64,000 nucleotides of DNA, taken from a virus. Taxonomy: Duplodnaviria > Heunggongvirae > Uroviricota > Caudoviricetes. Position numbers and translations under genes: made by a program. This document shows positions 23,449-55,066 of this stretch, piece after piece. Where the stretch lies: positions 1-64,000 of the IMG/VR virus record IMGVR_UViG_3300015177_000008; one strand, 5' to 3'. The notes beneath the pieces are model-generated. The model worked only from the letters and a program-made list of their open reading frames with translations. It did no database searches and was not told where the DNA came from. Positions within the stretch are counted from its first letter, which is position 1, and the number at the start of each line of letters is the position of its first letter.

Positions 23449-23544
23449 AGATCCCTCTAAAACACACAGAGCGCGTCCATGCGCTCTAAAACAACTTGTT
23501 TACTGCGTATGCTAACCAACTTGTTTTCTGGGGTGTTTAATTAG

Positions 23545-23641
23545 GTCTGGGCATGTCTTACTAAGCCTGCTTCCGTATATATTTAATAAGTTACTTATTA
23601 TTTATATATACAGAAGCAGGTCTTTAAATAAGCTCCCAGAC
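23545..23641. repeat. ~97-bp composite imperfect palindrome upstream of terS (cos/pac or late-operon regulatory site candidate)
   Basis: Outer arms GGTCTGGG..CCCAGACC, inner arms CCTGCTTCCGTATATAT..ATATATACAGAAGCAGG, central AATAAGT/ACTTATT; shares an exact 22-mer with 57455-57476. Confidence 0.5.
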
Positions 23642-23644
23642 CGA

Positions 23645-23911
23645 TTACATCACCAGTAACTTCGCTTTGGCTCGACCTAAAGTGGTTAACCCAAGAGTCC
23701 GGCGGTGATAGCGATTGTCACTGCGTTGGCGCGTATGCCCTTTCTCCACCAGCCCCTTTTTTATCAGAGCGCGAATTGAGAACTGGATACTTTGCTTTGT
23801 TGTCTTGTACGGCAAAACTTCAAGCAATTCGTCCAGATCAAGTAGATGACCTCGCTCATAACCGAGATTGAGCGTTTTGATGATGTCCTTTTGTTTGTCG
23901 GTTAACGTCAT
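23645..23911 (-). CDS. small winged-helix-like DNA-binding protein (hypothetical)
   Basis: 88 aa, basic, helix-rich; last gene of the ParB operon before the palindrome. Confidence 0.35.
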   Translation of the reverse strand: MTLTDKQKDIIKTLNLGYERGHLLDLDELLEVLPYKTTKQSIQFSIRALIKKGLVEKGHTRQRSDNRYHRRTLGLTTLGRAKAKLLVM

Positions 23912-23920
23912 GGCAAATCC

Positions 23921-24811
23921 TTATGCCGGTAAAGCAATTTCTAACGGTTTATCCAAAGGTTGTTTGTCGAATGCCAGCAGTGGCAGCGTGTCAGGCAGTC
24001 GACGGCCAAAGTCAGGGTTTCGGTACACACCATACAACGGAGACGTAAAGCTCAGGTTGTGAATGTCCTTGAGCAGCTTCACAATGCTGGCCTCGTCCAC
24101 CAGACTGTCGGCAATGTCCTGAATCGTCGTGCCACGATTCCGCCCAGCTTTTGCCAGGGAACTGTTCTTGTGGTAGTCCGCCACCAGATCACGCAGTGCA
24201 CGGCGACGACGAGACTCGCTCATTGCGAACAACTCTTTGACGATCGCCTCGTTATCACCCGGGTCAGAACGGAAATGGCGCTGGAATACACGCAGTGCAC
24301 TTTCATAGCTCTTCGGTCGCTCAGGGCGGATGAACTTAAACCCTGCTTTCATGGCGAAGGGATTGTATTTGCTCATCGAGGACTGGATCTCAATGATTGG
24401 CCGGTCATGCATCCTGCTAACCAGGTTAATCATTCGATAAGAGACGCCTACGCCACGATACTGAGTATCCACAACTGAGCGACTGATCACCGCAAAGTTG
24501 TTATTCACGTACCGACCCCAGTACTGGTTAGCCACGGTGGTATTAGTGGTTGGTTTCAACTTAGGAAACATGCGGTGGCGAGGTGCCAACAGTAGTTTCG
24601 GGTAAGCCATAACCACGACGCCCACCAGACGGTCATCAAGTTCGCAGCGATAGTAAGTTGGCGCGAAAGGTTTGCCGTCTGTTTTGTAGTGAAGCGACTT
24701 AAGAGCGTGCCAGTCCTCTACAGTTCCCTTTGTAACAGTCATTCGCTCCAGAAAGTCCAGATGACGCGGAAACTCTTCAGGGCGGTAGCGTTTAATGATG
24801 ATGTCCGTCAT
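23921..24811 (-). CDS. GNAT-fold acetyl/acyltransferase domain protein with ~120-aa C-terminal extension
   Basis: GNAT motif A (VVDTQYRGVGVSYRMINL) followed by beta5-like NPFAMKAGFKFI; 4-nt overlap with upstream ATPase gene. Confidence 0.5.
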   Translation of the reverse strand: MTDIIIKRYRPEEFPRHLDFLERMTVTKGTVEDWHALKSLHYKTDGKPFAPTYYRCELDDRLVGVVVMAYPKLLLAPRHRMFPKLKPTTNTTVANQYWGRYVNNNFAVISRSVVDTQYRGVGVSYRMINLVSRMHDRPIIEIQSSMSKYNPFAMKAGFKFIRPERPKSYESALRVFQRHFRSDPGDNEAIVKELFAMSESRRRRALRDLVADYHKNSSLAKAGRNRGTTIQDIADSLVDEASIVKLLKDIHNLSFTSPLYGVYRNPDFGRRLPDTLPLLAFDKQPLDKPLEIALPA

Positions 24812-25473
24812 AAATGAACCTCATCATGACTACCATTGTGATATTCCACCTTCACGCGTTCTTTGTAGTGCTTGGTGATCTGCATATCCGGGCGCAGCGC
24901 GTTCTTCAGGTCTTCGTGAGTCGTCGCCACCATTACCGTCGCACCAACCTTTCGAGCGGCACGCTGGAGGTTAGATGCCACAACCTGAGCGGTTACACGG
25001 TCTAGAACAGCACCGAACTCGTCAGCAGCCCACACTTTAGCGCCTGACTCAATCAGTTTGGCAATCTTGAGACGATATTTCTGGCCGTCTGACATTTCAG
25101 AAGGCTTGCGAACAAACAGATATGCATCGTTCAGACCAGCCATAGATAACAACCCAAGCGCATCACTGGTCGTTTTGCCCAACTGATCGATGACGTTAAC
25201 CTCATTATCGAAGGTAAAATCATCGATGGAGGCTACAGAAAGCCCTTCATCCTTCATCTGGCGTTGCAACTCGCGCAGCACAACGGATTTGCCAGAACCG
25301 GATTGGCCGGTGATGTACACCACATCGCCCTGCTTCACTTCCAGCTCCAGATTGTCGTAAAGCGTCCACTCTTTTTCGTCCAGGCCAAGCCCGAACGACT
25401 CAGCGATTTCCAACGTGCGCGTGGTTTTATTTACGCGTGTCTGAAACGATACGTTGATGATGTATTTGCTCAT
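24808..25473 (-). CDS. stand-alone ABC-type ATPase
   Basis: Walker A GQSGSGKS, signature-like MSDGQKYRL, Walker B VWAADEF, H-loop ATTHEDL; no transmembrane domain. Confidence 0.6.
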   Translation of the reverse strand: MSKYIINVSFQTRVNKTTRTLEIAESFGLGLDEKEWTLYDNLELEVKQGDVVYITGQSGSGKSVVLRELQRQMKDEGLSVASIDDFTFDNEVNVIDQLGKTTSDALGLLSMAGLNDAYLFVRKPSEMSDGQKYRLKIAKLIESGAKVWAADEFGAVLDRVTAQVVASNLQRAARKVGATVMVATTHEDLKNALRPDMQITKHYKERVKVEYHNGSHDEVHL

Positions 25474-52623: not shown

Positions 52624-52727
52624 AATTGCACCATTAAGAAAAGATTTGTTTAATAGTGCAATTATTTCAAAAAATGAAAAGGTACTAAATAGAAATTAAC
52701 AGGCAATCCTTTAAATAAAGGTATTTG

Positions 52728-53626
52728 CTAATCATACTTTGAGGTATTTATAACCAGGATTTTGTTTGTATAAATCTTCTTAATATCCCATGTGACGTTA
52801 CCGGAATACCATTGACCGTTATATACTTGGTTTCCAGTTGCACCGGTCATAGTTACATAGACAGGTCTGTCGTAATCGGTTCGTCTAAAGTTATAAACCC
52901 CAACCATAGCAGGCATTACCGCACACGGATACCCCATATCTATTGTAAATTGAGGGTCAGAAATAGTGATAAGTTTCGCATCAAGGGGCATCATCTCACC
53001 GTGATACACCATTGCGCCTGCGCTGTTATACATGGCAATGCCATAGCCAGAATGTGGTAACACCATATCAGAAAAAGCATAAACTGTTATTGTTCCGGGG
53101 CTACCATTTACCTGATGCAATCTGAGAGCATTGTATCCGTTACTATGTTCATGAATAAACATCATGTTCGCCTTATTACTGCTTTTTATGAAGAAAAAGC
53201 ATGATTTGTTTGATGGGATTGATGTTTTAAAAACAGAACCTTTAGATGCAGACATTGTCCCTTTATTAATCAGATTTTGCGGAGTAAATTCAGGACTCAT
53301 CCACAAACTTCCATCTGATTGAGTAATTGACATCCCGAACATAATTATCCCCAGTATGTGTATATGTAAGAACCAAGCCCCGTATATAAATTTGACCAAC
53401 TAACCGTATTTCCATTAATAGTAACATTTGGAACAGGTAAATTGATGTAGTTGTCGTTGTTAAGAGGCATTAATGACCACACGGCATGTAGTGATTTACC
53501 CGGTGGCGGATTAGAGTACGTCTTAGAGCCTGATGATGCCGTAAACCGATCAAGAAAAAAAATAGGTGTAAGGAAGCCAGTAACGTTAATTCCTTTATTG
53601 TTGTAAATCCCTGTACCGTATGCCAT
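52728..53626 (-). CDS. hypothetical protein, possibly one gene split by a frameshift
   Basis: ORFs 53345..53626 and 52728..53399 overlap in different frames near CCCC runs; AT-rich. Confidence 0.3.
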
Positions 53627-53680
53627 TTTTCATCCTTGTTTTTATCAACATAATATGGCCGATCATGCGGCCATATCAGA

Positions 53681-54250
53681 TCAATTAGAGCTTTGAAAGG
53701 CTTTGTGTGGCTGTGTTGCGAGGTTATGTCGATGGCTTAACTCACGCATCATGTCTTCAAGGCGACTCTTTGTGTCGTCGAGCTGGTCGGCCATTGCTCC
53801 CAAAAGCTGACGAACGGCCATTGGATCGTCACTGTTTAGTGACGGCATTTTATAACCCGCCTTAGAAGACATCAGATTGAATGCAGACATCAACATTGTT
53901 AGAGAAAACTTAAGTCCGGCAATTTCACGATCTTTGCTGGCAATAATCGTCTCACTTTTGTTACCGTCATGAGTTCCTTGAGTCTCGCTCACCATATCCA
54001 AAGTCGCTTGCAACTTATCAGCTCTCTCTTTTTCAGCAAGGTAATGAACGCCGAAATGATGTGCTAAAGCTACAACCTGAGTTGGTTCTTCAAAGGTGGA
54101 ATTAAAATTAAGTACTGTAAACAGTCTCTCAAATATGGAAACGTCTTCTGTTCCCCGAACAATGCCTAACATTTTGACAAGTTCATTAGCATCCATTTCT
54201 TCGAATAGGGCGTTTTGTTCATCAGCTATTGCTTTGCATTTCTCGCACAT
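53681..54250 (-). CDS. hypothetical protein
   Basis: 189-aa ORF with conserved leader motif upstream (about 54269-54286). Confidence 0.4.
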   Translation of the reverse strand: MCEKCKAIADEQNALFEEMDANELVKMLGIVRGTEDVSIFERLFTVLNFNSTFEEPTQVVALAHHFGVHYLAEKERADKLQATLDMVSETQGTHDGNKSETIIASKDREIAGLKFSLTMLMSAFNLMSSKAGYKMPSLNSDDPMAVRQLLGAMADQLDDTKSRLEDMMRELSHRHNLATQPHKAFQSSN

Positions 54251-54547
54251 GTGTTTTCCTTAATGCTTAAACAAGTTGTTTTCTTATGTGCTTTATTGTG
54301 ATGTGGCATATAAGGGGAGCAAGCTAAACGTAAAGGTGCAAACTCTCTATTTTGGTCAACGAAACACAAGGGCCATTTGGCCCTTGTCATTAACACGTTG
54401 CTTTACGGACTAGCGGATAGGCGAAGTAGATCGCCAAACCAATGAGGACGCCATCAGAAATGACAGACATCATCTTTCCCGTGAAATCAACCAACACCGC
54501 CATCACCAGAAGAGCAATGACGGTCACAAGCCGGAATCTCTCAAGCA

Positions 54548-54973
54548 TTAGAGATAAGCATCCAGTGACAACTGAAGCGCCTGGGCGATCTTTTTCAGCG
54601 CCTGCTCTTCTTGTTCACCAATGCCGTCCTGGTCGGCAATATCAAGGCACAGACACAGAACATCGACCGCCTCTGGAGTGCCCGCAATATCAGCCAGCTC
54701 ACGCATAGCCTGTGCATTAGCGGAACGAGGGGACGCTTCGTAACGAGCACGGATATTGGCGCTCATTTGGGCAATTTCACCAGCAAACGGAGAAAACGCA
54801 GGCAGAGCTGCAATTGTTTTCTCAAGAATGGCAATTTCTTTTGCGTCACATGTGCCGTCGGCATAGGAGATCATGTACGCGCCCCACACGGTGGCCTCAA
54901 CCGCATCACGGTTCTCCATTTTTTTGACTTCAATAACAGCTTTACGAGTTTTCTTTTTGAAGAAACCTAACAT
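54548..54973 (-). CDS. TerB-like (tellurite-resistance TerB domain) protein
   Basis: Two ADG-x4-E-type repeats (YMISYADGTCDAKEIAILEK, LCLDIADQDGIGEQEEQALKK); conserved leader upstream. Confidence 0.55.
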   Translation of the reverse strand: MLGFFKKKTRKAVIEVKKMENRDAVEATVWGAYMISYADGTCDAKEIAILEKTIAALPAFSPFAGEIAQMSANIRARYEASPRSANAQAMRELADIAGTPEAVDVLCLCLDIADQDGIGEQEEQALKKIAQALQLSLDAYL

Positions 54974-55066
54974 GTGTTTTCCTTTTATTATTTGTCAAAA
55001 CAAGTTGTTTTCTAGTTTCATATATTGCTTGCGCAAAGATGGTCAATGCATATGCACTAACAACCG

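Follow-up and report, generated by a model that had tools for sequence, protein, structure and literature searches.

What is the short sequence that recurs ahead of a terS-like packaging gene and a series of small accessory genes in a tailed-phage genome, and what reads it? The question arises in a 64,000-nt stretch of viral DNA (positions 1 to 64,000 of IMG/VR record IMGVR_UViG_3300015177_000008; here, the window), in which most genes are coded on the minus strand. The element that carries this stretch has a near-palindromic box of 17-19 bases, AGAAAACAAnTTGTTTAAG, directly upstream of ~16 genes. We conclude that this one box and one trans-acting factor very probably make up a single negative regulon of ~16-20 transcription units, which takes in the accessory-gene cassettes as well as parA, dnaB, cobT, nrdB and the terS late operon.

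An earlier, sequence-only reading had placed the window in a prophage, which was not borne out. Judged from its sequence, the window is part of an SSU5/pHCM2-type Escherichia coli phage-plasmid, an extrachromosomal element: positions 30001-55000 are identical to the 113,678-bp plasmid NZ_JBTZOT010000003.1 of a clinical E. coli strain, and the remainder of the window mostly matches it block by block. The phages closest to the region are the Escherichia phages Cyrano, CMS-2020a and PhiR41_1; Klebsiella phages and Salmonella phage SSU5 are more distant. As comparators we used the whole record NZ_JBTZOT010000003.1, phage SSU5 and pMT1 of Yersinia pestis.

The box has the consensus AGAAAACAAnTTGTTTA(A/G), and its version as an RNA oligonucleotide is AAGAAAACAAGUUGUUUAAGG. 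The core, AACAAnTTGTT, is a near-perfect 6-1-6 palindrome, and the flanks are asymmetric (AGA...AAG). In its exact form, AACAANTTGTT, the core is present 7 times in the window against 0.13 expected, a count reached in none of 100 shuffles. When up to two mismatches were allowed, AGAAAACAANTTGTT gave 21 strand-hits in the window against 1.18 expected. Similarly, a 21-nt weight matrix scored 12 window sites at 20 bits or more, a level that no site reached in 30 shuffles; this matrix was trained on the same sites that it scores, and the exact-core count is the independent test of enrichment. With the matrix we located as 17-nt boxes all of the gene-proximal sites that had been named from the sequence, every one of them on the minus strand. 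These boxes, the cassettes around them and two weaker copies are as follows.

22816-23448, minus strand: terS-like gene (phrog_867), which heads the operon of packaging and structural genes.
23513-23529, minus strand: terS box 1, AGAAAACAAGTTGGTTA, score 24.9, with one imperfect half-site (TTGGTT).
23488-23504, minus strand: terS box 2, AGTAAACAAGTTGTTTT, score 24.0; it runs directly into the leader hairpin and lies at a distance of 25 bp from box 1.
34816-34895, minus strand: cassette with TTGACG, GATAAT (34863-34868), 11 nt, box (34835-34851), Shine-Dalgarno sequence and the ATG of a 160-aa open reading frame (ORF; 34333-34815).
36515-36600, minus strand: two-box cassette in which an inverted box (36581-36597) overlies the -35 and a forward box (36532-36548) follows the GATAAT (36559-36564).
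36374-36514, minus strand: 46-aa ORF that follows this two-box cassette and is itself followed by a 93-aa ORF.
37476-37545, minus strand: cassette with TGgTATTAT (hexamer 37514-37519), box (37486-37502) and the ATG of a 103-aa ORF.
37959-38030, minus strand: cassette with TGgTATTGT (hexamer 37998-38003), box (37970-37986) and the ATG of a 109-aa ORF.
38316-38405, minus strand: cassette with TGcGATAAT (hexamer 38374-38379) and box (38347-38363), before a 72-aa ORF.
40840-40911, minus strand: two-box cassette of a DUF1380 gene, whose inverted box (40893-40909) and forward box (40844-40860) flank TGaGATAAT (hexamer 40871-40876).
54251-54320, minus strand: cassette of a 189-aa ORF, with a poor -10 (CACAAT) and the box of highest score in the window (54268-54284; 29.2 bits).
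54974-55045, minus strand: cassette of a TerB/TciA-like gene (54548-54973), with box (54997-55013).
39527-39543, plus strand: weaker box, score 18.0, at the 5' edge of a CA-rich ORF-free stretch, with orthologous copies in SSU5 and L212.
39735-39751, minus strand: half-site AGAAAACAAC with no right arm, score 13.1.

The strong gene-proximal boxes all lie in sense orientation, their centres 14-47 nt (median 26) before the start codon, and often touch the Shine-Dalgarno sequence. Both of the inverted pairs that had been described around a -10 box are real: at either promoter the inverted copy lies 51 bp, centre to centre, from its forward partner, with the -10 box between them. The same pair, with the same 51-bp spacing over the -35, is found at the SSU5 orthologues of both promoters, and the inverted copy itself is also kept in a Nissabacter-type element. 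The two copies claimed for the ORF-free region were likewise located, although they are weaker, the first being in opposite orientation (18 bits) and the second only a half-site (13 bits).

The accessory-gene cassettes, which we term class I, share one order: a weak -35, a conserved GCC, GATAAT or TATTAT (often with TGn), a CA-rich spacer of 10-11 nt, the box, the Shine-Dalgarno sequence and the ATG. Six window boxes are preceded at 10-11 nt by a GATAAT, TATTAT or TATTGT hexamer, with the TGn extension in four of the six, and an extended -10 layout of the same kind is present in SSU5 and L212. The extended -10 promoter of sigma-70 has a TATAAT-like hexamer (position 2 being A and position 6 T) directly after a TGn, and can do without a -35. 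A strict consensus promoter scan recovered none of the cassette promoters, because their -35 boxes are weak. The GATAAT architecture proposed for all of these genes holds for the accessory cassettes; it does not extend to terS (CCTAAT, in which the critical A is missing), dnaB, nrdB or parA, and it is poor at 54268 (CACAAT) and 54997 (CAATAT). The box itself was rejected as a -10 or -35 element: the Shine-Dalgarno sequence directly follows it, so a start downstream would exclude that sequence from the mRNA.

How far does the box extend beyond these genes? Over the whole element we found ~16 strong boxes, all intergenic and nearly all in sense orientation shortly before a start codon on the same strand. 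Those outside the window precede parA, dnaB, cobT, nrdB and a DUF7238 gene, and the regulon first drawn around terS and the small accessory genes, though built on a box that is real, was too narrow. At terS, dnaB, nrdB, parA and cobT (class II), the box and the ribosome-binding site are conserved and the -10 is poor or elsewhere; the dnaB box begins 7 nt past the stop codon of the upstream gene, and the nrdB box sits in the nrdA-nrdB spacer. SSU5 has ~20 box sites in the same layout, at orthologous as well as lineage-specific genes, and boxes are also present in Yersinia pMT1, in Klebsiella plasmid(s) and in the Nissabacter-type element. Both terS boxes stand out as conserved islands among 41 distinct terS upstream sequences, in which the spacer between the boxes varies. 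The alignment of upstream regions thus confirmed the boxes as conserved islands, while the covariation sought with it was lacking, in that the box itself shows no compensatory change. Together, enrichment, intergenic placement, retention as islands in variable upstream regions and conservation across genera give good support to the earlier suggestion that a box common to many genes, placed immediately after the promoter, defines a regulon.

That suggestion would have failed if the motif were a generic repeat of the host genome, which it does not appear to be. The 80-nt cassette at 34816-34895 has matches at 267 places in 240 of 5426 complete E. coli genomes, all on plasmids and none chromosomal. 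A host repeat of the REP or ERIC kind is rejected on the same count, the query having been the whole 80-nt cassette and not the bare 17-mer. The box does not belong to a known RNA family either, as an Rfam scan of the whole window returned no match at gathering score, nor does it resemble the promoter of a phage single-subunit RNA polymerase: only the dnaB copy is T3/SP6-like by eye, and no such polymerase is annotated. A seemingly decaying SSU5-like copy with few intact genes lies in an E. coli chromosome (CP125919.1 381158-401682; L214). In this copy several boxes carry disabling changes, and the FljA-like protein, introduced below, is 51% identical; it is a natural example of the fate of the box without selection.

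These observations bear on another explanation of the repeats, in which a promoter-leader cassette has been duplicated and the A/U-rich box, with no dedicated factor, is a generic S1-binding translation enhancer or the initial transcribed sequence of a strong promoter. Cassettes are indeed related by duplication, those at 37476-37545 and 37959-38030 being near-duplicates, and the spacer between the -10 and the box is conserved too. Against this, the boxes remain islands in terS upstream regions that have otherwise diverged, stand in unrelated contexts without the cassette (dnaB, nrdB, parA and 3' ends) and degrade in the decaying chromosomal copy, and the strict palindrome is left unexplained. 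We consider this explanation highly improbable.

If a dedicated factor reads the box, which protein could it be? The best candidate, overlooked in the sequence-only reading, is encoded in the window.

31673-32194, plus strand: FljA-family gene, 173 aa, candidate trans-acting factor; PF03614, E = 3e-82 over the full profile.

This protein is predicted to consist of two tandem Sm/Hfq-fold domains. We found its gene in 12 of 12 SSU5-like phage records and in no other complete phage, on contigs of ~105-115 kb from many genera, and in Klebsiella and Y. pestis elements (pMT1). Klebsiella and Y. pestis are classically non-motile, and because the gene is kept in elements of such hosts, the protein is likely to have its target inside the element. 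No box is present in the control region of the gene itself.

Salmonella FljA binds the 5' leader of fliC and blocks its translation. The fliC leaders of Salmonella arizonae, Salmonella diarizonae and Citrobacter all include CAAGTTGT, which is identical to the box core and stands, like the box in the phage cassettes, 23 nt from the ATG; the chance of such a match is ~0.001-0.003 per 62-nt leader (background, 3 in 162 kb). The comparison rests on these leaders; another sequence, ACATTGGTTATCAAAAACC, was set aside as a fliC leader and most likely comes from the fljB/hix region instead. The two systems are alike in that a PF03614 protein is encoded, the target would lie in a sense 5' leader beside the Shine-Dalgarno sequence, and the CAAGTTGT core of the Salmonella and Citrobacter leaders stands at the same distance from the ATG. 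They differ in that FljA has one known target, against ~16-20 here on a mobile element whose hosts include non-flagellate genera; moreover, the element protein is only ~40% identical to chromosomal FljA, the sequences flanking the core are different, and binding to the box is proposed by analogy. Of the features of an FljA-type translational operator, the encoded PF03614 protein and the place of the target in a sense 5' leader are present; the likeness in sequence to fliC is partial, and binding of the FljA-like protein is our proposal.

Our preferred reading, which we hold tentatively and at somewhat less than even confidence, takes the box to act within the mRNA leader, as the binding site of the tandem-Hfq-fold protein of the FljA family that the element encodes. 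From the position of the -10 hexamers we infer transcription starts that would place the box in the first 5-21 nt of the leader; elsewhere it would be transcribed within an intercistronic spacer. The protein, through its tandem Sm/Hfq folds, would bind the box in RNA, and, positioned just before the Shine-Dalgarno sequence, would exclude the 30S subunit and destabilise the mRNA. Small transcripts made of a box and a terminator, including the attenuated two-box terS leader, might compete for the protein as decoys.

The last step of this model draws on the anatomy of terS, where a further feature lies between the boxes and the ribosome-binding site.

23467-23488, minus strand: terminator-like attenuator found by a terminator scan, a GC hairpin followed by TGTGTGTTTT.

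The consensus fold of the terS hairpin includes one compensatory change of a G-C to an A-U pair and some wobble changes. Units of this type, in which a box is fused directly to an intrinsic terminator (class III), include the terS leader, SSU5 units near 85608 and 87631, and the L065 unit. The SSU5 box at ~87631, between two convergent genes, lies in sense orientation in the 3' untranslated region (UTR) of SSU5_102, joined to the terminator of that gene; three other contigs have kept it, and the hairpin has undergone compensatory changes. The L065 unit consists of GATAAT-N11-box-terminator only, with a predicted RNA of ~45 nt. In one lineage of IMG/VR contigs (L155, L164-L182), a precise 25-bp deletion merges terS boxes 1 and 2 into a single box, and this deletion shows that the terS repeats are substrates for recombination and that a single box is tolerated at terS.

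Class III units also suggest that RNA might recognise RNA. Here, short box-plus-terminator RNAs (from the terS leader, 3'UTR-derived units and the L065-type unit) would pair with leader boxes, the core being self-complementary, and occlude the ribosome-binding site, with the FljA-like protein as matchmaker. A box joined to an intrinsic terminator with a U-tail has the architecture of an Hfq-dependent small RNA, the two terS boxes are predicted to pair together, and the FljA-like protein has a predicted Hfq fold. However, a 13-bp A-U-rich duplex with a central mismatch would be weak, the terS leader is the sole candidate within the window, and the case is drawn from anatomy only. We regard such pairing as quite improbable.

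Is the regulon off or on when the element resides as a plasmid? Published transcriptomes of the LF82/Cyrano lysogen (supplement of PMC9928086) contain reads for the orthologous genes. Most box-preceded genes, among them terS, cobT, the TerB-like gene and DUF1380, were near zero in LB, and parA, dnaB, CYRAN_109 and CYRAN_111 stood at 2-6 times background, the value of 6 belonging to CYRAN_109, the orthologue of the gene behind the cassette at 36515-36600. The FljA-like mRNA was ~2 times background in LB and reached log2 7-8 in other conditions, and the gene for a 117-aa partner of ParA was at 9 times background. These data fit negative control, with the regulon largely off in the plasmid state, and are compatible with control at either level.

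At which level, then, does the control act? An operator at about +1 and an RNA element in the 5'UTR were the alternatives first offered, and both survive as readings. We lean towards the RNA reading because the asymmetric box is consistently in sense orientation at ~30 independent leaders; because intercistronic copies (dnaB, nrdB) are in poor places for a promoter operator; because a conserved box lies between convergent genes, where no promoter can be; and because box-plus-terminator mini-units exist. It is favoured further because an Hfq-fold FljA homologue is conserved in non-flagellate hosts, because the CAAGTTGT core matches the Salmonella and Citrobacter fliC leaders, because FljA-like mRNA is present in the LF82/Cyrano lysogen, and because the CI-like repressor of the element has a different palindrome and is absent from SSU5.

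Several observations weigh against this reading. Single-copy leaders form no consistent or stable RNA hairpin (z -0.1 to -1.8 relative to shuffles), and the E. coli K-12 fliC leader has no CAAnTTGT. The association of the FljA-like gene with the box is confounded by phylogeny, and an FljA-like protein of only 58% identity goes with an unchanged box, leaving no signal of covariation. The near-zero mRNA levels of most box-preceded genes count on the same side, as does the narrow gap between -10 and box: 10-11 nt separate the two in 83 cassettes out of the 130 whose -10 is good. An autonomous hairpin or riboswitch was rejected outright, since folding is no better than that of shuffled sequence and no compensatory change is found in the box.

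Much of this evidence can be turned in favour of a DNA operator. A dimeric phage-plasmid repressor would bind the double-stranded box, at about +5 to +21 of the cassette promoters, and block RNA polymerase; at some promoters a second, inverted operator over the -35 would give cooperative binding or a short loop, and two tandem operators would guard terS. The 117-aa ParA partner and an 88-aa protein from a gene upstream of terS are candidates for this role, as is the FljA-like protein if it acts on DNA. A 6-1-6 palindrome is the signature of a dimeric DNA-binder, and the deviations TTGGTT and TTATTT are one-sided and never compensated. In two genera, inverted copies are placed near -37 with a constant 51-bp spacing and look like paired operators; the distance from the -10 box is tight; the leaders lack autonomous RNA structure; and transcriptional repression fits at least as well with box-gene mRNAs at floor and the ParA partner at 9 times background. 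In addition, the box of parA persists in a par cassette that is only 48% identical, where the putative DNA-binding strand RTMS(L/I)ED is kept as well.

Yet no conserved classical repressor with a box at its own promoter was found. The flanks are consistently asymmetric and in sense orientation at the independent leaders, and some copies stand where a promoter is lacking, at the convergent 3' end, in intercistronic spacers and in box-plus-terminator units. Loss of the ParA/117-aa cassette from pMT1, where the boxes are intact, also speaks against an operator for the ParA partner, weakly, as the divergence there is small. Overall we judge a DNA operator to be only a little less probable than the RNA reading. 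The probability that is left belongs to some explanation outside the four considered here.

From its sequence we read the 117-aa ParA partner as ParG-like, with a ribbon-helix-helix fold. The 88-aa protein is the following feature.

23645-23911, minus strand: gene for the 88-aa protein (phrog_900), which has a DNA-binding annotation in Cyrano; the gene directly precedes the terS control region, and the protein is an alternative DNA-level candidate.

This protein is not a lysogenic repressor, because its mRNA is at floor in the LF82 lysogen. The element also encodes two ParB_N proteins; their mRNAs are at floor in the lysogen, and the silence of the 88-aa gene and of the ParB-like operon tells against both as operator-binding repressors. 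We rejected the CI-like helix-turn-helix protein encoded beside the integrase as a binder, since a different palindrome, GGTAAGnnCTTACC, is found at its own control region and the protein is absent from SSU5, as is the whole CI-like/integrase control module. HicB was rejected in that hicAB has no box. Among the regulator genes considered, only the parA operon has a box at its control region; the CI-like gene, hicAB, the FljA-like gene and the ParB-like operon have none. Host factors (IHF, NrdR, KdgR, LexA, Fur and others) were set aside by reasoning, as none appears to fit the spacing. The divergent control region of the CI-like gene (NZ_JBTZOT010000003.1 76878-77128; L003 36878-37128), which lies outside the window, contains GGTAAGTGCTTACC and GGTAAG/CTTACC half-sites; these are probably immunity operators, distinct from the box.

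If the FljA-family protein does read the box in RNA, a wider scheme can be sketched, which we offer as speculative and on balance unlikely. It would be a Csr-like circuit, in which the tandem-Hfq-fold protein acts on a self-complementary RNA box in ~20 leaders of replication, partition, packaging and accessory genes, and short box-plus-terminator RNAs, such as the attenuated terS leader, serve as decoys or pairing partners that flip the element between plasmid life and lytic growth. In that case the FljA of Salmonella would be a phage-plasmid regulator that has been domesticated, with the fliC leader imitating the phage box.

Other features of the element came to light beside the box. Upstream of the terS control region, at window positions 23566-23620 on the minus strand, lies a 55-bp AT-rich near-perfect palindrome, CCTGCTTCTGTATATATAAATAATAAGTAACTTATTAAATATATACGGAAGCAGG, of which a second copy is found upstream of the replication-gene cluster (NZ_JBTZOT010000003.1 65948-66002; L003 25948-26002). 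The palindrome is highly conserved in relatives, and the SSU5 record begins at its centre; it could be a cos or pac site, an origin or a bidirectional signal. Between about 38950 and 39780 (minus strand), ~800 nt are free of ORFs and, on the coding strand, extremely C/A-rich and G-poor, with GCCATTAC(C/T)C-like words every ~90-125 nt. A strong terminator (38890-38916) closes this stretch, which opens beside the box copies; its conserved sequence, the box copies at its start and the GCCATTACCC word are shared by SSU5 and L212. Possible identities are a long non-coding RNA, a Rho-loading tract and an array of protein-binding sites. Just past the terminator, at ~38450-38870 on the minus strand, a G-rich segment contains about five GGGAAA(A/C)GGCT-like repeats ~30 nt apart, which look like iterons and possibly mark an origin or a centromere.

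The window also carries host-like metG (40993-43155) and apbC (43184-44284) genes and a gene for a 1416-aa inverse autotransporter (44811-49061), an FdeC-like adhesin. The closest full record, NZ_JBTZOT010000003.1, has in addition, outside the window, dfrA51, two IS3 copies and the toxin-antitoxin pairs TacAT and HicAB. In the LF82 lysogen, CYRAN_43 (OV696614 40268-40822; supplement of PMC9928086), located between the glutaredoxin and integrase genes, is at ~720 times local background, far above all other genes of the element; its signal may come from an abundant non-coding RNA rather than an mRNA.

How does the box compare with known dispersed regulatory sites? In T4, the RegA protein represses many mRNAs through A/U-rich sequences at their ribosome-binding sites. 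One phage protein acting on many phage mRNAs is likewise what we propose here; RegA, however, has an unrelated fold and sites that overlap the AUG and are non-palindromic, and T4 is virulent. The phage-plasmid P1 has many 17-bp operators for C1, its autoregulated immunity repressor, asymmetric sites that are spread over unrelated promoters and sometimes paired. The present sites are also dispersed and intergenic, ~16 in the E. coli element and ~20 in SSU5, at promoters whose position is inferred from the -10; in contrast to P1, the CI-like protein has a site of another sequence, and we found no repressor that carries the box at its own gene. In mycobacteriophage L5, dozens of asymmetric 13-bp intergenic stoperators in one orientation let the immunity repressor gp71 block elongation and silence the prophage. 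Our box is similarly in sense orientation at all gene-proximal intergenic sites, yet it is palindromic, lies beside ribosome-binding sites and is not linked to the immunity repressor (the CI-like gene having GGTAAGnnCTTACC).

Partition-linked global regulation is known from KorB with its OB sites (RK2), omega (pSM19035) and the N15 centromeres, OB being a 13-bp 6-1-6 palindrome in a dozen or more copies. The box shares with OB its 6-1-6 geometry and the placing of some copies over a -35, and parA itself has a box. Unlike in those systems, there is no sequence similarity, the ParB_N genes are silent in lysogens, and pMT1 keeps its boxes without the ParA/117-aa cassette. Finally, the CUP repeats of IncN and IncW plasmids are longer repeats with regulators of their own, forming an upstream promoter module before several accessory genes. 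Our cassettes likewise repeat an upstream promoter module before accessory genes, a formal analogy that claims no homology.

Full-text literature searches found no description of the box and no account of how the SSU5-type family controls lysogenic and lytic expression; the circuit that ~16 genes probably share through the box appears to be new for a family so widespread in the clinic. Phage-plasmids of the SSU5/pHCM2/pMT1 type, which carry resistance genes, are frequent among clinical E. coli, Klebsiella, Salmonella Typhi and Y. pestis. Standing before partition, replication, nucleotide-synthesis and packaging genes and ~10 accessory genes, the box is a handle on lysogenic and lytic control in these elements. 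It defines a regulon, predicts which small genes of unknown function are co-expressed, and gives a 19-nt probe for the regulator. If it is true that an FljA-family protein reads the box, then the mechanism and RNA specificity of that family could be tested on ~20 natural targets, compared with one flagellin mRNA so far, and an origin would be suggested for the phase-variation repressor of Salmonella.

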